Positions 3,619-58,387 of a DNA stretch of 64,000 bases are shown here, piece after piece (position 1 is the first letter of the stretch; the number at the start of each line of letters is the position of its first letter). A program made the translations under genes and the position numbers. The notes under the pieces were generated by a model. The model ran no database searches and was not told where the DNA came from. It worked only from the letters and a program-made list of their open reading frames with translations. This stretch comes from Candidatus Staskawiczbacteria bacterium (GTDB lineage Bacteria > Patescibacteriota > Minisyncoccia > Minisyncoccales > Staskawiczbacteraceae): assembly GCA_903831095.1 (NCBI GenBank), contig CAIKWD010000026.1:29290-93289 (forward strand). The letters are read 5' to 3'.

Positions 3619-4269
3619 TTAATAACTTGGCCTATTAATTGTGGTTAAATGTGTTAAAGGTAAAAGCCTAATTGAAGCTTTGCCTATAATATTACTTTTA
3701 GATACAACTCCCCATGCTCTAGAGTCGTATGAACCCGTCCTATTGTCGCCCATTACAAAATATTGTCCATCTTTTATAACAGTTACTTCTGGAGTTGTCA
3801 GTAACATGCCTGAACTTGTATATACGTATGTTTTCAAATTAGCTGGCAGATATTTTTCATTCAAAACATTTGTCTTTCCATTTTCAGTTATTTTTACCTG
3901 GCCATTAGCTACTTCTACTGTATCTCCTGGAAGCCCAATTACTCTTTTAATAAATCGCTCTCCAGCAAATGTCTTACCAACAAATCCAGCGTTAAAAACA
4001 ACTACGTCGCCCCTTTCTGGAGCGTTAAATCTGTAGGATATTTCGTCAACAATCAAATAGTCATGATTTTCAAAATTTGGAGACATAGATTCTCCACTTA
4101 CAATAAAAGGCTGAAACAAAAAATAGCGTATTGGCAACACTATTACGGCCGCAATAACAATAATTTTGACCAACTCCCAAATAGTTTGCTTAATTCCCTT
4201 GCTTGCCTGTGCAGGCGGGTTATTTTGCTGATTTTCTGCTGATTTTTCTAAGTTGTTGTTAATCTCCAT
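3619..4269 (-). CDS. lepB: Signal peptidase I (S26 family)
   Basis: 216 aa with an N-terminal TM, the GESMSPNF (Ser box) and GDNRTGSYDSRAWG motifs. Confidence 0.85.
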   Translation of the reverse strand: MEINNNLEKSAENQQNNPPAQASKGIKQTIWELVKIIVIAAVIVLPIRYFLFQPFIVSGESMSPNFENHDYLIVDEISYRFNAPERGDVVVFNAGFVGKTFAGERFIKRVIGLPGDTVEVANGQVKITENGKTNVLNEKYLPANLKTYVYTSSGMLLTTPEVTVIKDGQYFVMGDNRTGSYDSRAWGVVSKSNIIGKASIRLLPLTHLTTINRPSY

Positions 4270-21646: not shown

Positions 21647-22009
21647 TTAAAAAAATGTTGCCGTAAATAGTCCGATGGCCCCCAATATAAAACCGACAAT
21701 CGCCCCAGGGGTAGGAATTTGCTTAAAAAATACCCAGGCTAAAATTGGTTCCATTAATAAAATTGATGTTATTGAAATTACGCTTACTACCCAAATATTT
21801 TTAAAAACATTTATCCCAAGCATATATCCAAACAACACTGTTCCTCCAGCTATAGCGATAATCAAAAAAGCCTTTAAAAAAACATTCCAAAACGGCTGCG
21901 AATTTAAATAGTCCCCTTTTGCTCCAAGCATCTGTCCGTAGATGTATAAAGCTTCTCCTAAAAAAACTAAGGCAATAATAAAAATTTTAGGCCACAATCC
22001 TGCAATCAT
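21647..22009 (-). CDS. Small 4-TM membrane protein (SMR/DMT-like), paralog of the gene at 47506-47859
   Basis: 120 aa with four hydrophobic segments and a Glu in TM1 (GEALYIYG). Conserved FKNIW and MEPILAWxFFKQxPT blocks are shared with 47506-47859. Confidence 0.5.
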   Translation of the reverse strand: MIAGLWPKIFIIALVFLGEALYIYGQMLGAKGDYLNSQPFWNVFLKAFLIIAIAGGTVLFGYMLGINVFKNIWVVSVISITSILLMEPILAWVFFKQIPTPGAIVGFILGAIGLFTATFF

Positions 22010-22015
22010 ATAAAT

Positions 22016-23446
22016 TTATTTAATAATTCTCGGAAACAAATTTTCTGATTTTTTATTTTCGATTGCTTTTATAATCTTCTCAGCTGTTTCAGGAATAAAA
22101 GGTAAAAGCAAATTTCCAATTTCTTTTATAGCATAAAACAGATCGCTTATAACTTTAGGATTTTTTGTCTCCCAAAGCTTTTCCTCATTTATGTATTTGT
22201 CGCAGTGGCTTATTAATTCCCAAATACATATCAAAGCCTCGTTAAATTTAAATTCCTCAAGTAAAGTATTATATTTTTCTTTTGACTCCTCAGCTTTCTT
22301 AATAATTTCCTTTGAAGGTTTAGATTCTTTAAAATCTATTTTAGATGAAATTCCCAATACCCTAGCAACTAAATTTCCAATACCTCCTGCCAAATCTGAA
22401 TTATACCTTTGCTCAAATTTTTCATATGTAAAATCACCATCCTCAGTTGGAAGAATTTCTCTTAGTAAATAATATCTCACAGCATCTACTCCGTATTTTT
22501 TAACTAGCTCAAAAGGATCAATTACATTCCCTAAAGATTTGGACATTTTCTGACCATCAACGTTTAAAAATCCGTGCACAAAAATTGACTTTGGTAGTCT
22601 TAAACCGGCAGACAAAAGCATTGCCGGCCAAAATATTGTATGAAACTTCATTATATCCTTTCCTATGCAATGCACGTCGGCCGGCCAATATTTTTTAAAT
22701 TGTTTGTTTTCTTCTGCATATCCAATGGCAGAAATATAATTTGGTAGAGCATCACACCAAACATACATGACTTGTTCGGAATCACCAGGAACCTCAAAAC
22801 CCCAATATTTGTCCTTTGTCCTGGAAAAACTAACATCTTCCATACCTTGTTTTAGCATGCCTAAAGTCTCGTTCTTTTTCGACTCTGGAATAACTTGTAA
22901 TTCCCCACTAATAATCAACTCCTCTATTTTTTTATTATATTTTGAAAGCTTAAAAAAATAATTCTCCTCTTCCACAATCTCAAGAGGCTTTAAATGTATT
23001 ACACATTTTCCATCAGTTATTTCTTTTTCTGTTTTAAAGGATTCGCAACCAGGACAGTAATAACCTTTATATTTCTTCTTATATATGTCTCCACTAGCAT
23101 CTAACTTTTTCCAAAGCTTCTCAACAGCAGGCTTATGTTTAACTTCATCAGTTGTTCTAATAAAGTCGTCATTGGAAATATTTAAAGCCTTAGTCAAATC
23201 TCTAAACTTACCAGAAACTTCATCAGCAAAATCCTTAGGATCTCGCCCAAGTTCCCTAGCAACTCTCAAAGTCTTAATTCCATGTTCATCTGTGCCAGTC
23301 AAAAAGAAAACATCTTTTCCTAATTGCCTGTTGTATCTTGCCAAAACATCGGCCTGAATTGCCTCTAGCGCAAAACCAACGTGAGGTGAAGCATTTGTAT
23401 AAGGTATGCTGGTTGTTATATAAAACTTTTTCTTTTTTGTAAACAT
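22016..23446 (-). CDS. metG: Methionyl-tRNA synthetase
   Basis: 476 aa with an HIGH-region (PYTNASPHVGF), KMSKS (KMSKSLGN) and a CPGC zinc knuckle. Confidence 0.9.
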   Translation of the reverse strand: MFTKKKKFYITTSIPYTNASPHVGFALEAIQADVLARYNRQLGKDVFFLTGTDEHGIKTLRVARELGRDPKDFADEVSGKFRDLTKALNISNDDFIRTTDEVKHKPAVEKLWKKLDASGDIYKKKYKGYYCPGCESFKTEKEITDGKCVIHLKPLEIVEEENYFFKLSKYNKKIEELIISGELQVIPESKKNETLGMLKQGMEDVSFSRTKDKYWGFEVPGDSEQVMYVWCDALPNYISAIGYAEENKQFKKYWPADVHCIGKDIMKFHTIFWPAMLLSAGLRLPKSIFVHGFLNVDGQKMSKSLGNVIDPFELVKKYGVDAVRYYLLREILPTEDGDFTYEKFEQRYNSDLAGGIGNLVARVLGISSKIDFKESKPSKEIIKKAEESKEKYNTLLEEFKFNEALICIWELISHCDKYINEEKLWETKNPKVISDLFYAIKEIGNLLLPFIPETAEKIIKAIENKKSENLFPRIIK

Positions 23447-29303: not shown

Positions 29304-30062
29304 TCACTCTGCTTTACGCATTAAAATATTTTTTGAAGAATTGTCTGATAGTGTATAAAAATAGTAACTATCTGATATTTTCTTAAACAACTTCTGACTT
29401 GGTCCACTTATTTTTATTTTACAAAATAACGGCCATTCTTTCTTAAAAATCAAGCGCAATAATTTTACAGCATCAGAATTTATTATTAAAACTTTTAAAT
29501 CATCACTCAAGCATTTTTTACACACTGCGCCTCCTGATTTATTGGAAAAATAAATACTTTCTGGATTTAATTTATTGTTACACACGCTACATTTTTCCAC
29601 TTCTGGACGATACCCTAATAGCGAAATAATATTCCATAAAAAATAATACTCTAATCGCGCACATTGTCTATCTGTTAAATTTTCTTTATCTAACCTATCA
29701 AAAGTTTCCTTTAGCAATTTAAATATGTCTTTATCTCTTTCTTCGCCAATTATAAAACTACTTAAAATTTCTCCAATATTATGACCAATTTTAAATTTTA
29801 AGGGATTTTTTCCAATATTTTTTAACTTTTCAATAATAACAGCATCTGTAAGTGTTTTCCGCCTTTTGCCTTGAATAAACTCAATTTCAGAAAAATAAAA
29901 AGTATCTATTCCACTCCTTAATTTGGAAACACCTTTCCTTATTGCCTTGGCAAAAATATCCAGGCGCCCAAATTCATCTGTAAAAACTGAAAAAATCCTG
30001 TCAAATTCATTTACATCGTTTTTCCCAAAAATAAAAGCTTGAGTCTTATATCTAGTTGTCAT
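29304..30062 (-). CDS. recO: DNA repair protein RecO
   Basis: 252 aa with an OB-fold N-terminus and a C4 zinc motif (CSVCNNK...CKKC). Confidence 0.75.
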   Translation of the reverse strand: MTTRYKTQAFIFGKNDVNEFDRIFSVFTDEFGRLDIFAKAIRKGVSKLRSGIDTFYFSEIEFIQGKRRKTLTDAVIIEKLKNIGKNPLKFKIGHNIGEILSSFIIGEERDKDIFKLLKETFDRLDKENLTDRQCARLEYYFLWNIISLLGYRPEVEKCSVCNNKLNPESIYFSNKSGGAVCKKCLSDDLKVLIINSDAVKLLRLIFKKEWPLFCKIKISGPSQKLFKKISDSYYFYTLSDNSSKNILMRKAE

Positions 30063-30847
30063 TTCATTTTACCAATTTTGTTCAAAAAAATCTTCTCTTT
30101 TCTTAATTTTTCATGTTTAACTTGATCAGTGGTATTAAGTATTTTTTTATTTAAATCTTTAATAGCCAGCTTCACATCACCCCTAGAAATATTTCTCCCA
30201 TAATAAGATTTAGAAAATACCTCTTTTGCTAGTTCCTCTCTCTGTGTAGGGCTTAAAAAAAGACCAGATTGTCTTGCCGCTTGCCAAATTTTAGGATCTT
30301 TTCGAAATTCATGTGCTAATTCTTTTTTAGAAATTTCCCCATCATTGCCAAAAAGACCCTCATTTTTATCACCCTGATGGTTAATTTCTTTCTTATCTTT
30401 TATTGTCGACGATTTGAAAATATCAGCAATAGAACCAGCAGCTTTTTGACCTTCCTGTACTGTTTTCTTAGCAGCCTCTATATCTTCTTTTTCATAAACC
30501 AAAGATTGATTATGTATTTTTGCACTTGTAGGTATTTTTATTTCTTTATGATTATCAATTTCTATACCAGCGAATCTTGAAGGCATTTTTGATTCCAACG
30601 TCCCCTTGCTTCCAGCGCCGTTATGCTTGAATTTTGCAAGACTATCTGCAATTCCTTTTTGTTCTTTTTCATTGAAATTCTGCTTGCGGCCTTTTTCTTT
30701 TTCATCTTTTTCTTTTTCAACTTTTGAACTGTCAACAAACCCGCCTCCACCAGAACTTTTTGGACTTTGTGCCAAAGTACTGTCTCCAGGATTACTGGAA
30801 TGATTTTCAGTTTTTTTTTCTTCCTTAAATTTATCGTAAAGAGACAT
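30059..30847 (-). CDS. Hypothetical K/E-rich protein
   Basis: 262 aa, low complexity, no motif recognised. Confidence 0.4.
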   Translation of the reverse strand: MSLYDKFKEEKKTENHSSNPGDSTLAQSPKSSGGGGFVDSSKVEKEKDEKEKGRKQNFNEKEQKGIADSLAKFKHNGAGSKGTLESKMPSRFAGIEIDNHKEIKIPTSAKIHNQSLVYEKEDIEAAKKTVQEGQKAAGSIADIFKSSTIKDKKEINHQGDKNEGLFGNDGEISKKELAHEFRKDPKIWQAARQSGLFLSPTQREELAKEVFSKSYYGRNISRGDVKLAIKDLNKKILNTTDQVKHEKLRKEKIFLNKIGKMK

Positions 30848-30861
30848 AATTGCTTTTTAAA

Positions 30862-31368
30862 TTAATATTCAGAATTCTCTGCCTTTGAAAGAGCCCAAGA
30901 AAAAAACTCCTGGTCATCTTGCAATTTTTGCAAATCTTCTTGTTGAAAATCTTTCTGCTTTTCAACCCACTCTTTAGTCACCAATTTTTCTACATCTGTT
31001 GCGTTCGCCCAAGATTTTTTATTTTCTACTGATTCTAATAAATCTATTAATTCTTGCTGATTCTTGTCTTCTTGACTATCAGAATCAAAAATCTCTTTAG
31101 AATCAAGATTATTTGCTTTCAATCTCAATTCTGCTTCCCTGTCATAACGCAACTTATATGAAAACCTATTTTGCCCAACAAATTTTTCCTTTTCCTTTTT
31201 CCCCAATAACTTCAAAGCTTCCTTATCAGCCATTTTAATTCCCTTAATTAATAAGAAAACAAAAATAAAAAAAACTGTTAAAAATATTATAAGAATCAAA
31301 GCTAAAAATATTAAGTTATCCTTATTTGTAAAATCAATATTTTTTAGTGCAGAAAAATCAAATTGCAT
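30862..31368 (-). CDS. Hypothetical membrane-anchored coiled-coil protein
   Basis: 168 aa with one N-terminal TM (LIFLALILIIFLTVFFIFVFLLI). Confidence 0.4.
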   Translation of the reverse strand: MQFDFSALKNIDFTNKDNLIFLALILIIFLTVFFIFVFLLIKGIKMADKEALKLLGKKEKEKFVGQNRFSYKLRYDREAELRLKANNLDSKEIFDSDSQEDKNQQELIDLLESVENKKSWANATDVEKLVTKEWVEKQKDFQQEDLQKLQDDQEFFSWALSKAENSEY

Positions 31369-38497: not shown

Positions 38498-38852
38498 GGG
38501 GATGATTGTTTCGATGGATTGTTCTTTAAAGTAAGGCAAGTTGAGCTTTCTTGGGGCTCATTAATCTCCTGAGAAAAAACATAATTGCTAATTTATTTAA
38601 CTTTAATAAGCAACCAGCTTTAGCTTTTGCTTAAGCTGCATCCTTACCGATGATTCCTAATGGGCGGATCAAGGGTGTTATATTATTAGGATAGGCATCT
38701 TCATTCTCCGGGGAAATGCCAAAACTAAGGAGATAAAGCATTAAAAATTTTGCTAATTTTTTATTTAATGCTCGAAAAACAAAATCAGCTAAACTTGTAG
38801 AATTGCTTTTGAGAATTTTTCAGACGCGGTTTCAATACCGCCATCTCCACCA
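38498..38852 (+). ncRNA. ssrA: tmRNA (ssrA), about 355 nt
   Basis: 5' GGGGAUGAUUGUUUCGAUGG and 3' GACGCGGUUUCAAUACCGCCAUCUCCACCA (T-arm, acceptor, CCA). Acceptor pairing GGGGAUG/CAUCUCC. A candidate tag ORF reads ...GCU AAU UUA UUU AAC UUU AAU AAG CAA CCA GCU UUA GCU UUU GCU UAA (ANLFNFNKQPALAFA). It lies immediately downstream of smpB. Confidence 0.85.
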
Positions 38853-40544: not shown

Positions 40545-42308
40545 TTATTTAAAATAATCTAATAATTTTTCAACTGACAATGTATTTATTATATCTCCTT
40601 TTTCTGCCCATCCACGTCTGGCTTGCCCCACTCCATATTCCATAAAGCTTAGGTGCTCTTTTTGATGGCTATCTGTGTTAATAATCATTTTTATACCCTT
40701 TGCTTTTGCTCTCCTAATATTAAACCCATTTAAATCTAACCTTTTTGGAGTGGCATTAATTTCTAAAACAGTCCCAGTTTCTTTGGCAACTTCTAAAATC
40801 TTTTCAAAATCCATTTGATACTCTTCCCTCTCGTTAATAAGTCTACCCGTTGGATGAGAAATAATATCAACATTAGGATTCTGCATCGCTTTTACAATCC
40901 TGTCTGTCATTTCCTTTTGTCCCATTTTCATTGAAGAATGTACTCCAGCAATAACATAATCTAACTTTTCCAAAACTTCGTCCTTAATATCAATCGAGCC
41001 GTCATTTAAAATATTCGCCTCACATCCATGCAATATTATAAACTTAATTCCTTGCTTTTTTAATTTATTATTTATTTCTTCTATTATCTCATGTTGTTTC
41101 AAAAGTCCTTTTTCATCTAAACCATCATCAATTTTCAAAAATTTAGTATGGTCTGAAATCCCAATATACTCATATTCTAAATCTATGGCTTTTTGTGCTA
41201 TTTCTTCAATTAATTTTTCAGCATTATTTGAATGACGAGCTTCATCCGGCTTTGAATGGCAATGTAGATCACCCTTTATATCTTTTAACTCTACTAAAAT
41301 TGGTAAAAATCCATTTAAAGCAGCTTTTATTTCTCCGTCATCCTCACGCAGTTCTGGAGCTATATATGACAATCCAAGAACATTATAAACATCTTCTTCT
41401 GTCTTGCCAGCTATTTGTTTATTACCTTTGAAAATTCCATATTCAGAAAGCTTCAGACCTTTTGTAATGGCAATTTTTCTAGTGGCAATATTATGTTCTT
41501 TAGATCCTGTAAAATATTGAAGAGCCGAACCAAAACTTTCTTTCTTTACCATTCTCAAATCAACATCAAAACCCATTTTTAGCCTAACAGAGCATTTTGT
41601 TAGACCCTCGGCCCAAACTTTTTTAACTTCAGGCAAGTTAACAAAAAAATCAGCTGTTTTCTTGGAATTTTCCGATACAACCAAAATATCAATATCCCCT
41701 ATTGTTTCCTTTTGACGCCTAACTGAACCTGCCACGCTTATTTCTTTTATTTCTTTTTGTTTTTTTAAGCTGTTTATTATTTCCTTAACAGTTGGCATAA
41801 TATCTCCCAATAAAAATCTTCCTTTGTTCTGCTTTAGAAATTCCAAACCCTGCACAATATTCTTTTCTGTTTTTTCTCCAAAACCAAATAAAGGAGCTAT
41901 TTTATGTGCTTTAACGGCCTTAGTTAAATCTTTCAAATCCTTAATCCCCAATTTTTGATAAAGAGTTTTTATTTTCTTAGGGCCAATTCCTTCAACTTTC
42001 AGTAACTCGTCTACCTTCAAAGGGAGTTTATTTTTAAGATCTTCAAAATGCTTTATTCTCCCAGTTTTTAAATATTCTTCAATTCCTTTGGCTATTCCTT
42101 CTCCAACTCCCGGGATTTCTTCAAGCGCCTTTAATCCGCCATTTCTATATATCTCCGCTACATCTTCCTTGTAATTTTCCAATAAAAGAGCTACTTTCCT
42201 ATATGCATAAGGTTTAAAACTAACTCCATCTATTTCCAAATAGTCTGCTATTTCAAAAAATATTTTAGCTAATTCCTGATTCTTCATAAAATAATTACGG
42301 CTCAACAA
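40545..42308 (-). CDS. polX: DNA polymerase X family protein with a C-terminal PHP domain
   Basis: 587 aa with HhH motifs, a pol-beta nucleotidyltransferase core (GSVRRQKETIGDIDILV) and a PHP domain (HCHSKPD...). Confidence 0.85.
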   Translation of the reverse strand: MLSRNYFMKNQELAKIFFEIADYLEIDGVSFKPYAYRKVALLLENYKEDVAEIYRNGGLKALEEIPGVGEGIAKGIEEYLKTGRIKHFEDLKNKLPLKVDELLKVEGIGPKKIKTLYQKLGIKDLKDLTKAVKAHKIAPLFGFGEKTEKNIVQGLEFLKQNKGRFLLGDIMPTVKEIINSLKKQKEIKEISVAGSVRRQKETIGDIDILVVSENSKKTADFFVNLPEVKKVWAEGLTKCSVRLKMGFDVDLRMVKKESFGSALQYFTGSKEHNIATRKIAITKGLKLSEYGIFKGNKQIAGKTEEDVYNVLGLSYIAPELREDDGEIKAALNGFLPILVELKDIKGDLHCHSKPDEARHSNNAEKLIEEIAQKAIDLEYEYIGISDHTKFLKIDDGLDEKGLLKQHEIIEEINNKLKKQGIKFIILHGCEANILNDGSIDIKDEVLEKLDYVIAGVHSSMKMGQKEMTDRIVKAMQNPNVDIISHPTGRLINEREEYQMDFEKILEVAKETGTVLEINATPKRLDLNGFNIRRAKAKGIKMIINTDSHQKEHLSFMEYGVGQARRGWAEKGDIINTLSVEKLLDYFK

Positions 42309-42939
42309 CTGGCTTTTCTCCAGAGAAAGTAGCCTTGTGCCTATTTCTAGAAAAAATATTATTTTTAACGAACAAAAATATGAATGCGGATAAAAAAGTA
42401 AAAATACTCACAATTATAAAAAGATTTTCAAATCCGATTTCTTTTACCAATAACCCGCTTAATCCACCAGCTATTCCAGCTCCAGTTCCAATGGCAGTAG
42501 TTTCTAAACTCCATTCAAATGCTTCTCTACCTTTATCTATGTGACGCGTAAATATTGCCAGCCATGACGGGAGAGCCATTGCCATACCAGCTGCATAAAC
42601 TACCTGTAAAATATATATGTGCAATGGCATAGTTGAATAAATATATCCTACAGGTACTAAAGATATAATTAACATTCCTACAAACATAAACCAAAAATCG
42701 TCTTTTTCACCGTGGTTCTTGTCTAAATAAATTGCTACTGGTATTTCAAAAAAAGATTTTGGTATCCAGTAAAAAAGAGCTGCCAAACCTGCTATTTCAG
42801 CAACCTGAACAGCACCAGTATTGGAAATTTTCTGCAATATGAAAATAGCAAATATTGGTGACAAAAGACCCCATCCTAAATTCAAAAACAAATCACTTAT
42901 CACTAATGTTTTTATGACTTTGTTTATAAGTTTTGCCAT
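42295..42939 (-). CDS. Six-TM membrane protein resembling half of an MFS transporter
   Basis: 214 aa with six hydrophobic segments. No N-terminal partner half lies upstream. Confidence 0.45.
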   Translation of the reverse strand: MAKLINKVIKTLVISDLFLNLGWGLLSPIFAIFILQKISNTGAVQVAEIAGLAALFYWIPKSFFEIPVAIYLDKNHGEKDDFWFMFVGMLIISLVPVGYIYSTMPLHIYILQVVYAAGMAMALPSWLAIFTRHIDKGREAFEWSLETTAIGTGAGIAGGLSGLLVKEIGFENLFIIVSIFTFLSAFIFLFVKNNIFSRNRHKATFSGEKPVVEP

Positions 42940-46655: not shown

Positions 46656-47129
46656 TTAAGCTTTGTAGACTTTATATCCTTCGTGAACTTTCTTTTCAAT
46701 TTTCATACCTACAGAATCTCCTTTTTTAGCTGAAGCAACTTCCACATGTTCAATTTGCATTGATTTTACTTTCTGCTCAAAATCTGTATCTTGCCCGCCA
46801 ACTACCCTAATTATTTCCCCGTCTTTCAGCGGAGCTTCCAACTCAATAACTGCTACCTCAATATTTGAAAAATAATGAGTTATTCGGCCAATTATTTTAC
46901 CCTCTGGCTCTACCTTGGGCATTATAGATTTTGACGCAATCTTTTTAACTGCTTTTTTGACTGCTTTTTTAGTAGCCTTTTTTACAGTTTTTTTAACTGC
47001 CTTCTTAGTTGTTTTTTTGACTGCCTTTTTTATAATTTTTTTCTTCTTAGAAACTACTTTCTTTCCCGATTTCTTCGAGGATCCTCGACTGCTTTGCAGT
47101 CGGGACTTTTTTGCTTTTGCTTTGGACAC
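46656..47129 (-). CDS. Fusion of a histone H1-like lysine-rich N-terminus (KKAVKK repeats) with an EF-Tu domain-2-like beta-barrel C-terminal domain; GTG start
   Basis: 157 aa. Tandem KKAVKKT repeats precede KIIGRITHYFSNIEVAVIELEAPLKDGEIIRVVG...SMQIEHVEVASAKKGDSVGMKI. The start codon and leader are copied from rplT. Confidence 0.55.
   Translation of the reverse strand: MSKAKAKKSRLQSSRGSSKKSGKKVVSKKKKIIKKAVKKTTKKAVKKTVKKATKKAVKKAVKKIASKSIMPKVEPEGKIIGRITHYFSNIEVAVIELEAPLKDGEIIRVVGGQDTDFEQKVKSMQIEHVEVASAKKGDSVGMKIEKKVHEGYKVYKA
46930..47040. repeat. Tandem approximately 12-21-nt DNA repeats encoding the KKAVKK lysine-rich repeats
   Basis: Repeated units such as tttttgactgcctttttt are visible in the sequence. 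Confidence 0.6.
47064..47105. repeat. GC-rich palindromic mini-element, family 2, copy D (in-frame in the H1-like gene; encodes SRLQSSRGSSKKSG)
   Basis: tcccgatttcttcgaggatcctcgactgctttgcagtcggga. It has a 14-nt perfect palindrome TCGAGGATCCTCGA flanked by TCCCGA/TCGGGA. Confidence 0.75.
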
Positions 47130-47241: not shown

Positions 47242-47403
47242 AATAATTTGTACATATGACCTTTGCCTTTATATTATCACTATACGAAAATTTTTCAAAC
47301 AAAAACCGCCTTCGTAAGAAGCCGGGCTTTGAAGAGGGGGATAATAATTTACAGCGATCTCGGTGAACTTCTCGAGCTGAATTCGGACAATGAATCCAGA
47401 CAT
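47242..47403 (-). CDS. Candidate small ORF (53 aa) with a strong AGGAGG SD; not in the ORF track (below its size cutoff)
   Basis: AGGAGG is followed 9 nt later by ATG, giving MSGFIVRIQLEKFTEIAVNYYPPSSKPGFLRRRFLFEKFSYSDNIKAKVICTNY. The ORF runs through a terminator-like hairpin and ends exactly where the L20-leader copy begins, so it may instead be a non-coding region. Confidence 0.25.
47296..47330 (-). terminator. Terminator-like hairpin with a GUAA tetraloop (CCGCCTTC-GUAA-GAAGCCGGG) and a T-run on the minus strand
   Basis: Read from the sequence. It lies about 180 nt downstream of the 47506-47859 gene and upstream of the L20-leader copy. Confidence 0.45.
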
Positions 47404-47505
47404 ATAATTTTTCCTCCTTCGCTAAAAGTTATTATGTCCTTAAGATAAATCTCGCACCCCCTCATAACTGCCATTGTATTCTAAAACCCGTATAAGTCAA
47501 GATAA

Positions 47506-47859
47506 TTACAGCAAAGTAATTATTAAGCCTATAGCACCAAAGATAAATCCTATGGCGATTTTCAGAGTTGGGAGTTGCTTAAAGAAAAACCAGGCCAATA
47601 TTGGTTCCATTATTACTATAGCTGCCACAGACATGACTGCAATTATCCAAATATTCTTAAATATGTGCATTCCAAAATATACGGACCCAAGAAACAACGC
47701 TCCCCCAATTAAAACAATTAAAATAGCCAAAGTAAAAGTTAACATTTTTGAAGAGCTACCAACTGCATTTTTGGCAACAAACATTTCCGAATATAAATAA
47801 AAAGATTCGCCAATAAACAAAAACAAAATTACTAAAAATTTATAAAAAAGAATATTCAT
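47506..47859 (-). CDS. Small 4-TM membrane protein (SMR/DMT-like), paralog of 21647-22009
   Basis: 117 aa with GESFYLY in TM1, FKNIWIIAV, and MEPILAWFFFKQLPT, all shared with the paralog. Confidence 0.5.
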   Translation of the reverse strand: MNILFYKFLVILFLFIGESFYLYSEMFVAKNAVGSSSKMLTFTLAILIVLIGGALFLGSVYFGMHIFKNIWIIAVMSVAAIVIMEPILAWFFFKQLPTLKIAIGFIFGAIGLIITLL

Positions 47860-47860
47860 A

Positions 47861-48766
47861 TTAAAAAAATAGCGTTATAAAGTATCCGATAATAGCGCAG
47901 AGGGCAACTGGAGGCAAAGCTGGAATTGGTTCTGGTTTTCCATTTTTGGCTTTTTGAGAAGTAAAAAGATAATAAGTAAAAAATGATCCTACCAAGGAAA
48001 ACAAAACAATCAACAATGCCCTAAAAAATCCAAAAGGCACAACTGAAACCGCTAATAAACTTGGAAACACCACGTCTCCCCCACCTAAAATCATAAAGTT
48101 TCCTCCTTGCTTTACCTTGTGCAATTTTTCTTTAAAATGCTTTGATTCTTTTGGAATTATAAAACCTAAAATTACTTTCTGGTCTATCATTTCCTTTGCC
48201 ATTAAAATCATATGTTTGGTTTTATAAACTGCCACAAAGTCGTAAACAGAAAATATCATTAACAAAGCTACAACAACTGCTGGTGTAAAACCCAAACCAA
48301 AAAAACTGGCAGCCCCGGCCAACCCCAAAACCATTAAAACATTATGCACCCACACTGAAGGAAATTTCAGCCAAATCGCCAACAAAACACCTATTGTTAA
48401 AATTGTGACAGTTATAGGCAAAAATAAGTTTAAAAGAGTAATTCCTCCCCAAAACACAGTTAACAAGAATATGCCTTTGTAAATTATTCCTTTAAATTTG
48501 TTTATTTTTTTGTTTTTATATACTACAAAAATTAAAACAAAAAAAGTAATAAATATAAAGGAAAAAATAAAATCTTGCAAAGATGTTTTAGGTAGATAAA
48601 CTTCTCTATTCTCAGCCATTCTATTTAATTCAAATCCTCCAACTGCAGCTAAAAGCGAAGTCAACAAAAACAATCCGCCTTCAAAACTAAAAACTTTCCA
48701 AAACTTAATTTGATCTTCTTTTTTAGCTTTTTTTACTTTAACAATTTTTGGCTCTATATATTTCAT
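47861..48766 (-). CDS. Polytopic GxGD intramembrane aspartyl protease, presenilin/signal-peptide-peptidase (A22)-like
   Basis: 301 aa with about 8-9 TM. YD motif in a TM segment (FSVYDFVAV), GxGD (MILGGGDVVFP) and a C-terminal PAL motif (IPALPP). The alternative is a type IV prepilin peptidase (A24), which shares GGGD. Confidence 0.5.
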   Translation of the reverse strand: MKYIEPKIVKVKKAKKEDQIKFWKVFSFEGGLFLLTSLLAAVGGFELNRMAENREVYLPKTSLQDFIFSFIFITFFVLIFVVYKNKKINKFKGIIYKGIFLLTVFWGGITLLNLFLPITVTILTIGVLLAIWLKFPSVWVHNVLMVLGLAGAASFFGLGFTPAVVVALLMIFSVYDFVAVYKTKHMILMAKEMIDQKVILGFIIPKESKHFKEKLHKVKQGGNFMILGGGDVVFPSLLAVSVVPFGFFRALLIVLFSLVGSFFTYYLFTSQKAKNGKPEPIPALPPVALCAIIGYFITLFF

Positions 48767-48804
48767 ATTACAATTCTACCAAGAAATCAGCTTTTTACCA
48801 ACAA

Positions 48805-48836
48805 AAAATCCCGCAGTGGGCGGGATCTTTTAATTT
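48805..48836 (-). terminator. Intrinsic terminator ATCCCGC-AGTG-GGCGGGAT with T-run, downstream of the NIF3 gene
   Basis: A 7-8-bp GC stem followed by a T-run on the minus strand. Confidence 0.65.
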
Positions 48837-48846
48837 AAATTTTTAT

Positions 48847-49791
48847 TTACACTCTGGAAAATCTAGTAAATCCTGAACAGGCAACAATTTCAATACCTTT
48901 CTTTTCTAATTCATCCATCAGCAAGTTAACTCCAAGAGAATCAGATGATATGTGGCCAGCTATTACAATATTAACATGAGCTGATTCTGCATCTTTTCTG
49001 TTGTCCTCAGAAATATGCATTCCAATTACAGTTCCAATACCTGCTTGAGCCATTTTTTCATAAAGTTTCCCAGAACCCTCTGTTCCCCCGGTTATTTCTG
49101 ATAAGGCAATTTTACCGCACCTGTTTTCTGGCGACCCTGTAAAAATCTTTGGTCCTACCCCAATTTTCATTGCTTCTTTATATTCTGGAATTTCTTTTAG
49201 TGCTTCAACTAATTCTCCAACTCTCTCAAAGTTTTTTTTCTCAACAAATTCTTTTAAAAATTTGGCTGCCAAATTATCACATGGAGTATGTGAATTCATC
49301 AAGTTAACTTTCATCAGCCTAGCTGCGTCAACTGTTCTCTGATGGTTTGAAGCATTAACTCCCCTGGCAACTTCAGAAATTCTTTCTTTCATTAGACCTT
49401 CTGCTACGTTAATTGGTACTCCGTAGTAATTACAAACATCTGCCTGAAGTTCCATAACATCAGCCAACTGAGCTAATCCTTTACCAATTGGATGGTGAGC
49501 TATAACTAAATCAATATCTCCCAATTCCCTGGCAATTAAAATTTCATCAGGACCAATATCTATGCCCACTAAAACTTTCTTAATTTCTTTGTCATCTGAA
49601 ACATTATAAACTCCAGAATCTAAAAATGGATTTTCTAAGGCATCCTTGTCAAATTCTACCTTGTCTTTCTCTGATAGCTTGTCAAATCTCTTCTTTTTAT
49701 TGTCCAATAATTTCTGCACGCCCTCTTTTCCCCTGAAATCAGCTTCAGTTCCCATTTTTATCATTAACTTGTAAATATCTTGTATTTTCAT
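48847..49791 (-). CDS. NIF3 family dinuclear-metal-centre protein (YqfO/YbgI-like)
   Basis: 314 aa with DLVIAHHP and a C-terminal metal-binding His/Glu pattern. Confidence 0.8.
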   Translation of the reverse strand: MKIQDIYKLMIKMGTEADFRGKEGVQKLLDNKKKRFDKLSEKDKVEFDKDALENPFLDSGVYNVSDDKEIKKVLVGIDIGPDEILIARELGDIDLVIAHHPIGKGLAQLADVMELQADVCNYYGVPINVAEGLMKERISEVARGVNASNHQRTVDAARLMKVNLMNSHTPCDNLAAKFLKEFVEKKNFERVGELVEALKEIPEYKEAMKIGVGPKIFTGSPENRCGKIALSEITGGTEGSGKLYEKMAQAGIGTVIGMHISEDNRKDAESAHVNIVIAGHISSDSLGVNLLMDELEKKGIEIVACSGFTRFSRV

Positions 49792-50062: not shown

Positions 50063-51244
50063 CTACCTACCTTTTAGTGCCTCACGGGCAATTTGGCGGT
50101 CATCCCAGGGAATTTTCCTGCCATTTTCCAAACACATCCAAGGCTCTGACCCTTTACCAGTTATAATAACAACTTCACCTGGTTTGGCAACACTTATTGC
50201 AGTTTTAATTGCTTCTTTTCTGTCTAATATTTTTTTAGCATTATTACCTGCAGTTGCCATAACCTGATTTACAATTTCCTCAGGATTTTCGTCATATGGA
50301 TCTTCATTAGTAATAATTATTTGCTGGCAATATTTTTTTGCCAACTCTCCAAGCACAGGTCTTTTCCATTTATCCCTGCCTCCCCCACATGAACCCAAAA
50401 CACAAACTAAATTTTTACCAGCAAAAGATTTATAAACTGCTTCAAGTTGATCTGGAGTGTGTGCATAATCTACAACTACCTTGATTGGATTTTCAGCCAC
50501 AACTTCCATCCTACCAGAAATTCCTTTTGCTTTTTCTAAAGCTTTTTTGCAATTTTCCAAATCAACTCCATAAACATTGGCTACAGAAATTGCCGATAAA
50601 GCATTCATAATATTAAAATCTCCCATTAAATTAAGTTTCAAATTAACCTTATCTGCATCTTTTATAGAAAACTTAATTATTTGTTTTGCTTTGATATTTA
50701 AAAAATATTCTGCATTTTTGTCGTCGGCATTTATAATATGTATATTTTTACAAGCTTTGAAAAGTTTCAATTTTTCATTCCTATAATTTTCAAAACCTCC
50801 ATGGCTTTCAATATGTTCTGGAGTTAAGTTAGTAAAAACAACTGTGTCAAAGTTTATAAACTTGTGGCGAAACTGCCTGATTCCCTCTGAAGTAACTTCT
50901 AAAACTGCGTATTTACAACCTGCTTTTACAGCCTGACTTAAAAACTTCTGAATTACAAATCTACCAGGCATTGTCATTTTATATTTGTTATCCCATTCTT
51001 TCTCTCCAACTTTAAACCTTATCGAAGAAGCAGAAGCTACTTTTTCATCAGCTTCTTCCAATATTCTAGTAATTAAATCAACTGTAGTTGATTTACCACT
51101 AGTTCCAGTAACGCCGATTATTTTTATGCTTTTGCTTTTACCTGGAAAACCAAAAACTAAAGCTCCAAAAAAAGCTAGTCCAAAATGATAAGCCCTCAGC
51201 AAAAACTTCGGTATGAATTTTTTGATATTTTCTTTAAATGTCAT
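50063..51244 (-). CDS. Mur ligase family protein (UDP-N-acetylmuramoyl peptide ligase-like)
   Basis: 393 aa with a P-loop (GVTGTSGKSTTVDLI) and Mur ligase middle and C-terminal domains. Confidence 0.7.
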   Translation of the reverse strand: MTFKENIKKFIPKFLLRAYHFGLAFFGALVFGFPGKSKSIKIIGVTGTSGKSTTVDLITRILEEADEKVASASSIRFKVGEKEWDNKYKMTMPGRFVIQKFLSQAVKAGCKYAVLEVTSEGIRQFRHKFINFDTVVFTNLTPEHIESHGGFENYRNEKLKLFKACKNIHIINADDKNAEYFLNIKAKQIIKFSIKDADKVNLKLNLMGDFNIMNALSAISVANVYGVDLENCKKALEKAKGISGRMEVVAENPIKVVVDYAHTPDQLEAVYKSFAGKNLVCVLGSCGGGRDKWKRPVLGELAKKYCQQIIITNEDPYDENPEEIVNQVMATAGNNAKKILDRKEAIKTAISVAKPGEVVIITGKGSEPWMCLENGRKIPWDDRQIAREALKGR

Positions 51245-56092: not shown

Positions 56093-58387
56093 CTAATTTT
56101 TCTTAATTTTGTCTTTAACCTTAGCAATTTCCTCTTTGAGCTTATCAATCTTCTTTTTAATTTCACTAGCCTCTTTTTTTTGAAAAAACTTTCTCCCATC
56201 TAATAATGTTTTCTCTAAAGAATCCAATGATGACTCCAAATTTTCTTTTGACTTTTTTCTGTTAATATCATTTACAATACGCGCAATCTGTAAATTTATG
56301 TAATCCTCTGTTGCCTCTTTGCGTATTTTTTCCATCTTTTCATCAAGCATTTTTATTTTAGAAAGATCAACCCCACCCTCTTTTGCTTCCTTGATATTTA
56401 GGATTAATTTATCAACCCTGCTAGGCAAAACTGTTTTACCAGATTTTAAATCTAAATTGAACTTAGTTAATTGTTTTTTAACATAAGCTGAATCAATAGA
56501 TTTTTTTTCTTCTTCTTTTTTATTTATCTTTTCGCTTTTTCTTACAGTTTTTTTAACTGGTTTTTCGTCCTCTACTTCTAATTCAACAGTCTCTGTTGTG
56601 CTAATACCTAATTCTCCAAGTGAATTAGCCTTGTTATTTGACTTTGTTAATGCTTTATCATCTTCTAGATTTTCCGCTTTAGATACAATATTTTCTGCAG
56701 TTGTAACTTGGCCATTCTTACTTTCAGGCACCTCACCTGCTTCTTTTTCAGTTGGTTTCTCTAAACTATTATTTTTTAACCGTTCTGACATCATTCTGTT
56801 CGCTTCTTCATTTAAAACCATCAATTTATTCCACTTTTCAGTTGTTGCTACACCATCGCCCTCCATTATCAACTTTTTCCTCTCAGCCATTAATTTTTCG
56901 AAAAGAACATCTCCTAAGGGCATCCTATTATAATCATCATAGTTGAAATTTACATTTGGCGCCATTTTTTCCTCTGGCTTTGGATCTTTTCCCTCACTAT
57001 TTGGTTCTCCAGTCTTTGGCAAAACTGGCTCATCTTGTCTTTTTTCTTCAGATCCCAGAGTTTTCAATATGATTGGTCTCGCTGTTTCTGGCTCAACCGG
57101 GTTAGACTCATCTTTTGATTTTTCATCGGGTGGCAAGTTTGGCACAGCTTCTTCTGTTTTTTTAGGCCTAAAAAATTTAAGCTTAGGGGGTTTTATCGCT
57201 TCAGGTTCAACTGGCGGGATGATTGTCGACTCCTTATTTTCTGTGGGCTTTTTATCTTGCTTATTTTTTATACTTTCGTCAAATTCATTTACAGCTTGCC
57301 AAATTATTTCTTTTGCACAAGCATTTTTAGTATCTACTAATTTTTTCCTTGCTGAAGCAACTTTTTGATTTGCCATCTCTTCTGCTTCTTTACTTGTATC
57401 TTCTACAGCTTCTTTCAAAAATTTTTCAAAAAAATCTTTTTTACTATCATATGTAAAAACTTCACCACTCAATATTTTTTCTACTGATACTTTTTCAATT
57501 TTATTTTTTTTAGAAAACCAAAAATTTGATTTTTTAGCTTCTTTAACAACATATCCACCATTTATTAGCTTATCAAAAACAATAGTCCCTTCACTTCCTT
57601 CCAATCCTAACTTATTTTTCTCTTTTTCCATAAACTCTTCTATTTGTTCTTCTTTTAAGCCTGCATGCGTAAACTCAAAAATCCTTACAGCTCTTTCATG
57701 ATCCCTTTGTTTAATTTCTTCTTTAAATTTTTCTATCTTCCCCTGTCTATATGCCTCTATGGCTTTTTCCCCTCTAATAATATGCAACCCTTCTTCATTT
57801 AATTTTTTTATAGTTGCATATTTCCTCAATTTTCCAAGATTTTCTTCCCCATTTTTTAAATTCCTAAATTCTCGTGCTACTTCTTTAACTGACACTTTTA
57901 TATCTTTGTCTTCTTTATCAAGAATTTCCTTCGTAAGAAAATCTGCTGCATGTTTCTTTTCTTCTTCTGTTTTTTCAACTTTTACCCTCTCTGGTCTTAC
58001 CCATTCCTTGCTCGCTCCAATATTTCCCTCTGCATTATCATTTTTTTTATCTGAAACTTCTGTATTATCTACACCATTTATACTTTTCTTAAGTTTTTCT
58101 ATTTCTTCCTTATCTGCAGGCGAAATTTCTGGCTTATTAATTAAAGGTTTTTCATCACTTTTTCTTTCTGGAAATGGAACGGGTATCGCATTCCCTGCAG
58201 TTTCAACATATGATTTTTTACCATTCAAAATATCCCAAGCATCTTCTGGCTTAAGTTGACTAATATTTTCTTTGTTCAAACCTAACTCTCCCAACTTTTG
58301 TCTCATACCATTAGTAATCATTAAAGGCACTTTGACAGATTCCTCTTTATTATCTTTTTCTCTATTATCTGAATTTATTTCTGACAT
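56093..58387 (-). CDS. Large hypothetical K/E-rich, low-complexity coiled-coil protein
   Basis: 764-aa ORF. No catalytic motif recognised. Confidence 0.4.
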   Translation of the reverse strand: MSEINSDNREKDNKEESVKVPLMITNGMRQKLGELGLNKENISQLKPEDAWDILNGKKSYVETAGNAIPVPFPERKSDEKPLINKPEISPADKEEIEKLKKSINGVDNTEVSDKKNDNAEGNIGASKEWVRPERVKVEKTEEEKKHAADFLTKEILDKEDKDIKVSVKEVAREFRNLKNGEENLGKLRKYATIKKLNEEGLHIIRGEKAIEAYRQGKIEKFKEEIKQRDHERAVRIFEFTHAGLKEEQIEEFMEKEKNKLGLEGSEGTIVFDKLINGGYVVKEAKKSNFWFSKKNKIEKVSVEKILSGEVFTYDSKKDFFEKFLKEAVEDTSKEAEEMANQKVASARKKLVDTKNACAKEIIWQAVNEFDESIKNKQDKKPTENKESTIIPPVEPEAIKPPKLKFFRPKKTEEAVPNLPPDEKSKDESNPVEPETARPIILKTLGSEEKRQDEPVLPKTGEPNSEGKDPKPEEKMAPNVNFNYDDYNRMPLGDVLFEKLMAERKKLIMEGDGVATTEKWNKLMVLNEEANRMMSERLKNNSLEKPTEKEAGEVPESKNGQVTTAENIVSKAENLEDDKALTKSNNKANSLGELGISTTETVELEVEDEKPVKKTVRKSEKINKKEEEKKSIDSAYVKKQLTKFNLDLKSGKTVLPSRVDKLILNIKEAKEGGVDLSKIKMLDEKMEKIRKEATEDYINLQIARIVNDINRKKSKENLESSLDSLEKTLLDGRKFFQKKEASEIKKKIDKLKEEIAKVKDKIKKN

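Follow-up and report, generated by a model that had tools for sequence, protein, structure and literature searches.

A PSH-type homologue of the presenilin intramembrane proteases in a Patescibacteria genome

The window, the whole 64,000-nt stretch of DNA analysed here, encodes a bacterial homologue of the presenilin-type intramembrane proteases. Its gene occupies positions 47861..48766 of the reverse strand as an open reading frame with an ATG start, and the 301-aa product is a membrane protein with nine predicted transmembrane (TM) helices. Our data support the assignment of this protein to the A22 presenilin/SPP family of GxGD intramembrane proteases and not to the A24 family. It is very probably a stand-alone di-aspartyl intramembrane protease of the PSH type, with a cytoplasmic N-terminus (N-in) and with stubs of type-I membrane proteins as the substrates to be expected. 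The original prediction had described a 301-aa polytopic protein carrying YD, GxGD and PAL motifs in this order and having no N-terminal Cys-rich domain, and each of these features was recovered.

The YD motif lies in TM6 within the segment FSVYDFVAV (residues 172–180; 48227..48253, reverse strand), where D176 is encoded at 48239..48241. The GxGD motif is found at the start of TM7 within MILGGGDVVFP (residues 225–235; 48062..48094, reverse strand), with the D231 codon at 48074..48076, and the PAL motif just ahead of TM9 within IPALPP (residues 281–286; 47909..47926, reverse strand), with PAL itself (residues 282–284) encoded at 47915..47923. In an alignment of 30 homologues with identities down to 44%, residues Y175, D176, G228–G230, P282, A283, L284 and P285 are invariant, and D231 is kept in 29 of the 30. 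The choice of start codon is supported by the conservation of an N-terminal MKY..PK among the homologues, and the N-terminus that follows is a Lys-rich tail devoid of Cys in place of any Cys-rich domain. One homologue (P0087; 8 member sequences, 15.5-kb contig) carries GGGY for GGGD and TYRTKYIV for AVYKTKHM; judging from its sequence, this homologue may have lost its catalytic activity, or else the difference may be a sequencing variant.

A search against Pfam returned a single significant match, to PF06550 ("SPP, presenilin aspartyl protease"), with an E-value of 5.7e-28. Its 98.6 bits exceed the gathering score (23.9), and the alignment spans profile positions 3–279 of 283. Neither PF04258 (eukaryotic SPP) nor the A24 profiles (PF01478 or its N-terminal domain) matched the protein at E ≤ 1 in Pfam, so that the preference for A22 over A24 in the original prediction held once the profile searches were run. 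The only real match in a PDB sequence search was PSH of Methanoculleus marisnigri (4HYG, 4HYC, 4Y6K; E 2.8e-17), and with these two E-values the match to the family is far beyond chance. In the PDB alignment, D176 pairs with D162 of PSH and D231 with D220 in the GMGD motif of PSH; the TM6 family signature YD..AVYKTKHM matches YDAISVYRTKHM of PSH, and IPALPP aligns with the AGLPP region. The NCBIfam model NF041679 ("presenilin family intramembrane aspartyl protease PSH") matched with 106.8 bits (E 1.4e-30), a score under the curated cut-off of 125 bits for this equivalog (archaeal PSH); by the NCBI criterion, the protein is therefore a family-level relative and no equivalog of archaeal PSH.

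An AlphaFold2 model computed from the 30-homologue alignment (pLDDT 85.6, pTM 0.84) consists of nine long helices, two short strands (201–205 and 224–228) and two short helices in the TM6–TM7 loop. D176 is placed inside helix 162–183, D231 near the start of helix 229–241, which is preceded by strand 224–228, and helix 284–300 comes after the PAL motif. The top 25 Foldseek matches in the PDB were all PSH, PSEN1 or SPPL2a (best E 1.6e-7), with TM-scores of 0.6–0.7 (0.69–0.72 when normalised to the target), and no A24 structure was present among these 25. Both aspartates were thus found in predicted TM helices, D176 within TM6 and D231 where TM7 begins, and not in a loop as in the A24 enzymes.

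When the boundaries of the model helices were used to count charges, 26 Lys and Arg residues fell on the N-terminal tail and the TM2–3, TM4–5, TM6–7 and TM8–9 loops, against 2 on the opposite side, which by the positive-inside rule places the N-terminus and the TM6–7 loop in the cytoplasm. The predicted N-in topology of the model corresponds to the orientation of presenilin and PSH and is the inverse of that of SPP. Presenilins cut type-I substrates and SPP/SPPL proteases cut type-II substrates (PMC2947513, PMC12043953), and type-I substrates are to be expected here because the topology is presenilin-like and not SPP-like. The description as "presenilin/SPP-like" in the original prediction is apt for the family; of the two functional analogies, signal-peptide peptidase is not the better one in view of the predicted N-in topology.

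To our knowledge, no prokaryotic presenilin-family protein other than archaeal PSH has been characterised. PSH from M. marisnigri (MCMJR1, also MmIAP) and the window protease share the PF06550 domain, a length of 301 aa, the nine-helix fold, YD on TM6, GxGD on TM7, a proline-containing C-terminal motif and the common TM6 signature YD..(A/S)VY(K/R)TKHM. Neither has a large loop or extra domains, and the window protease is presumably stand-alone. The two differ in that they are only ~24% identical and come from an archaeal and a bacterial host, respectively; the window protease has a canonical PAL, to which AGL-PP of PSH is aligned, GGGD where PSH has GMGD, and a Lys-rich N-terminal tail unlike PSH.

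Human presenilin-1 (PDB 6IYC, 8OQZ) resembles the window protease in its nine-TM fold (TM-score ~0.6), the YD/GxGD/PAL triad, the N-in topology and the cytoplasmic TM6–TM7 loop, at an identity of 15–18%. As the catalytic subunit of gamma-secretase, however, presenilin-1 requires nicastrin, APH-1 and PEN-2 as well as endoproteolysis of its long TM6–7 loop, whereas the loop of the window protease comprises ~45 residues and there is no sign of partners. SPP and SPPL2a (A22B; PDB 9K92) share the fold, the catalytic motifs and the stand-alone character with the window protease, but have an inverted topology, act on type-II substrates and belong to the PF04258 family, to which the window protease has no match. 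PilD and FlaK (A24) are likewise polytopic di-aspartyl proteases with GxGD; their aspartates are located in cytoplasmic loops and cleavage takes place outside the bilayer, while the window protease matches no A24 profile, possesses YD and PAL and has no N-terminal Cys-rich domain.

In this reading, the nine helices would span the bilayer from a cytoplasmic N-terminus to an external C-terminus, and the two aspartates, D176 of helix 6 and D231 where helix 7 begins, would face each other across a water-filled cavity inside it, with the PAL motif ahead of helix 9 adjoining the active site. By analogy with archaeal PSH, a single-pass substrate helix would then enter laterally, unwind in part and be cut inside the membrane without accessory subunits. 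The expected substrates would be membrane stubs of type-I orientation (N-out/C-in) rather than signal peptides. PSH itself was shown to work without cofactors, and its TMD6 and TMD7 aspartates to lie opposite one another in a cavity accessible to water (PMC9282858). Archaeal PSH cleaves model TM substrates, an activity lost in Asp mutants, and cuts type-I derived substrates such as APP C100 in vitro, although its natural substrates are unknown (PMC2947513). It is from these precedents that we infer catalytic activity and independence of cofactors for the window protease, and from the orientation rule a type-I substrate class. No candidate substrate of the protease was found within the window, nor were sortase-type substrates (LPXTG with a C-terminal anchor) found there, and the literature searched yielded no data on activity, substrates or expression of bacterial members.

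We next consider the distribution of the family. A word-indexed search recovered 559 clusters of relatives at E ≤ 0.001; all of the best 120 of these 559 carry PF06550, and the named clusters are Parcubacteria, Staskawiczbacteria or Patescibacteria proteins. Existing names include "presenilin family intramembrane aspartyl protease" (NCBI) and "presenilin-like A22 family membrane protease" (JGI), and a sequence 100% identical to the window protease is already public with a PF06550 assignment. When each GTDB species was represented by one genome, relatives were encoded by at least 485 stretches, mostly from Patescibacteria and Chloroflexota; the best 80 of these at least 485 comprise ~57 from Patescibacteria, ~20 from Dehalococcoidia/Chloroflexota and 3 of archaeal origin. 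Several Patescibacteria among these best 80 loci are mislabelled "Saccharibacteria". The nearest genome loci among the matches listed are Candidatus Staskawiczbacteria MAGs with 60–70% protein identity.

In a rough neighbour-joining tree, the window protease groups with Staskawiczbacteria inside one large Patescibacteria cluster, and the Chloroflexota homologues form a second cluster. The same rough tree nests among the Patescibacteria a homologue of 34% identity from a contig labelled Candidatus Pacearchaeota (L056, 6001–6840; JAFCGI010000002.1), a placement that could stem from gene transfer, with ultra-small archaea and ultra-small bacteria as the partners, or from mis-binning of the contig. 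Descriptions of the presenilin-family proteases usually assign them to eukaryotes and archaea. Judged by the sequences in databases, the family is uncommon across bacteria overall and routine in Patescibacteria and Chloroflexota; "rare in bacteria", as the original prediction put it, is thus accurate for bacterial phyla in general but not for these two, given the at least 485 relatives listed.

Immediately downstream of the protease gene lies a gene for a 117-aa protein with four predicted helices (47506..47859, reverse strand), which begins 1 nt past the protease stop codon (junction TAA-T-ATG). The operon with 1-nt spacing proposed originally is real as far as this junction is concerned, but it is not a conserved arrangement: no homologue of the 4-TM protein was found within 6 kb of the protease gene at any of 80 related loci (the best 80 of at least 485). 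Among closer relatives, the gene stands beside a 78%-identical protease homologue (P0002/P0123) and is absent beside a 76%-identical one (P0003). Since the pairing is not conserved, it carries little functional weight.

A paralog of the 4-TM protein (120 aa; 21647..22009, reverse strand; 44.5% identity, phmmer E 2.1e-26) follows the gene for a class I Met-tRNA synthetase (22016..23446; PF09334, E 1.6e-110) at a distance of 6 nt, in agreement with the claimed location next to metG. Clustering at 50% identity gives the 4-TM family 146 clusters out of 1.84 billion representatives; almost all of them measure 105–120 aa, and the conserved residues include the membrane-embedded G17-E18 in helix 1 and E85-P86 in helix 3. 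No Pfam family covers the 117-aa protein or its paralog; weak matches to EamA occur in 3 of 46 members (best E 0.0012), and the best fold matches, EmrE and Gdx, are non-significant (E ≥ 0.76). We tentatively regard the protein as an SMR/DMT-like subunit that may form an SMR-like heterodimer with its paralog. The 4-TM protein was also considered as a conserved cofactor or substrate of the protease; its absence at all 80 loci and beside P0003, together with its SMR-like appearance, indicates that it is probably neither.

Other readings of the protease have to be weighed against this background. Patescibacteria commonly carry type IV pili, and a type IV prepilin peptidase (A24), which would cut pilin leaders at the cytoplasmic face by means of aspartates in loops, has in common with the window protein the GGGD sequence and the polytopic architecture. 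We give this reading practically no chance: there is no A24 profile match at E ≤ 1 and no A24 fold match, both aspartates are in predicted TM helices, and the protein possesses YD and PAL motifs, both invariant in the 30 homologues. The window ORFs scanned against Pfam included no pilin or pilus-assembly genes. It is also very improbable that the protein, with its presenilin fold, is catalytically dead and serves as a scaffold or as a partner of the adjacent 4-TM protein. The GGGY of P0087 means that inactive variants may exist, and the stop and start codons of the two genes are only 1 nt apart; the window protein, however, retains both aspartates, the glycines and PAL, all of which vary little or not at all among the homologues, and the supposed partner is missing at 80 of 80 related loci and beside the 76%-identical relative.

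A further alternative, which we consider improbable though clearly less so than the previous two, is a bacterial signal-peptide peptidase that clears the type-II signal peptides left by signal peptidase I, like eukaryotic SPP. The name of the matching Pfam model includes "SPP", a signal peptidase I gene is present in the window (3619..4269), and a protease that clears the membrane in general may be needed where the genome is reduced. Opposed to this are the predicted N-in topology, which is the reverse of that of SPP, the lack of a PF04258 match at E ≤ 1, the division of labour by which type-I substrates fall to presenilins and type-II substrates to SPP/SPPL (PMC2947513, PMC12043953), and the cleavage of type-I derived APP C100 in vitro by archaeal PSH (PMC2947513). 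The reading as a PSH-type protease of type-I stubs is the one that we retain.

The gene upstream of the protease belongs to the NIF3/DUF34 family (48847..49791, reverse strand; PF01784, E 1.4e-11). Among 80 related loci, NIF3 is immediately upstream of the protease gene at 15 and 1.3–5.3 kb away at 11 more, and it is conserved as a neighbour in many Patescibacteria. The conserved order is a Mur-ligase-family gene, NIF3, the protease, an EF-Tu-D2-like gene and DUF5680. In the window, the Mur-ligase-family gene (50063..51244, reverse strand) encodes a 393-aa protein that has just the middle and C-terminal domains and carries a hydrophobic segment where the N-terminal domain would usually be; in many Patescibacteria, its synteny with the NIF3 and protease genes is conserved.

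Sequence reading and a consensus scan of the interval between the NIF3 and protease genes (48773..48826, reverse strand) revealed a hairpin, ATCCCGC-CCACT-GCGGGAT, with a T-run after the NIF3 gene (48826..48800; palindromic) and a promoter-like TTGGTA-17-TAGAAT with a TG extension (48801..48773), both of which are consensus matches only. In addition, NIF3 directly abuts the RNA element described below, without an intervening protease gene, in several metagenomic loci (L104, L109, L116 and others). Coupling of NIF3 and the protease by co-transcription was considered as well, and it is weakened by these intervening signals and by the protease-free NIF3–RNA loci; together, they make the neighbourhood look like inherited synteny with a variable slot and not like a functional operon. 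The slot in this conserved gene block holds the protease gene and, here, the 4-TM gene. The protease gene probably has a promoter of its own and is probably co-transcribed with a lineage-specific SMR-like 4-TM gene, the functions of the two being probably unrelated.

Separating the 4-TM gene from the Lys-rich gene downstream is a 376-nt spacer, which contains a conserved structured RNA supported by covariation (47296..47500, reverse strand). The spacer shows 74–81% DNA identity with four Staskawiczbacteria loci and is more conserved than the flanking proteins in these comparisons. A promoter (TTGACA/TACAAT) is conserved, the core of the RNA measures ~135 nt (about 47326..47463, reverse strand), and an intrinsic terminator, consisting of a hairpin and a T-run, ends near 47296. 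The core comprises a closing stem GAGGGGG/CCCCCUC, a long irregular stem, a large internal loop and an apical hairpin with the invariant loop UUCAUUGUCCGAA. Copies in close relatives are located at L001 10721–10859, L002 9246–9386, L003 6990–7128 and L004 7004–7140, and a pattern scan of metagenomes added 40 further loci (L081–L120). In almost all loci with sufficient flanking DNA, the RNA lies upstream of an EF-Tu-D2-like gene on the same strand.

In the alignment of 34 sequences, 96.8% of cells were paired, and 16 two-sided pair changes were observed, compared with 5.3 ± 1.7 in shuffled alignments (0 of 500 reaching the observed value) and 3–6 in slid controls. The invariant GGACA of the internal loop is complementary to the invariant UGUCC of the apical loop, so a pseudoknot between the two is possible; because both are invariant, it is beyond the reach of covariation. 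The RNA was also considered as a known Rfam family, and no Rfam 15 model matched at its gathering threshold, nor at E ≤ 1 apart from snoRNA noise. A 44-aa ORF within the RNA (47269..47403, reverse strand), with a strong GAAGGAGG Shine–Dalgarno sequence, is probably not a gene, since none of the four close relatives has its ATG.

A covariance model recovered weaker copies of the RNA (23–77 bits) in distant Patescibacteria (L007, L012, L013, L014, L016, L020, L025 and L029). In the first five of these, the RNA heads an operon beginning with a SLOG-cluster4 (LOG-like) gene, followed by the EF-Tu-D2-like gene in four of the five; the contig of L007 ends too early to tell. An MgtC-type gene is third in the operons of L012 and L016, the L016 gene being recognised by similarity. 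We take the RNA for a candidate riboswitch-like leader, as yet undescribed; alternatively, it could be an independent small RNA. The gene downstream of it in the window (46656..47129, reverse strand) encodes a 157-aa EF-Tu-D2-like protein whose N-terminal half is variable and rich in Lys and Ala. The C-terminal 88 aa make up a beta-barrel resembling EF-Tu domain 2 and U32-C, which is 75–85% identical across hundreds of clusters and which, in many homologues, is the entire protein. JGI names the protein "putative protease", and it has no known function.

The host is a bacterium, as originally claimed, and one close to Candidatus Staskawiczbacteria. In the window, a tmRNA (38498..38852; 110 bits) adjoins SmpB, and GreA is encoded as well. 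The window also codes for IF3, L20, signal peptidase I, UvrB, TopA, RelA/SpoT and HolA and contains seven aminoacyl-tRNA synthetase genes besides the Mur-ligase-family gene; its GC content is ~34%. A 201-kb public contig carries proteins identical to proteins of the window. No Pfam match at E ≤ 0.001 was obtained for a 764-aa ORF (56093..58387, reverse strand) or for the ORFs 30059..30847 and 30862..31368. An MFS transporter of half length (214 aa; 42295..42939, reverse strand) matches the first half only of the MFS_1 profile, and it is no local truncation, since genes of the same size are called in close relatives (214 and 202 aa).

Presenilin is the membrane-embedded protease linked to Alzheimer's disease, and the gene described here is a bacterial relative of it. 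As a discovery it is modest, in that family, fold and motifs are those of the textbook and the anatomy does not depart from that of PSH. The routine presence of the family in Patescibacteria and Chloroflexota is recorded in database annotation and was not found in the literature searched, in which we came across no paper on bacterial presenilin homologues. Bacterial members offer a possible route to natural substrates of the family.

Elsewhere, type-I stubs are cleared by S2P or rhomboid proteases, and Patescibacteria are thought to be monoderm. A broader proposal, which we put forward as a rather unlikely one, is that the stand-alone, N-in presenilin homologues of Patescibacteria and Chloroflexota form old clades of their own and are the dedicated clearers of type-I stubs, such as C-terminal anchors that remain once sortase-like processing has taken place. 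The Pacearchaeota-labelled sequence among the Patescibacteria would also fit an exchange of genes between ultra-small bacteria and archaea. If this proposal were true, bacterial PSH would be a simple model with identifiable natural substrates, and stub proteolysis of the presenilin type would predate eukaryotes in both prokaryotic domains.
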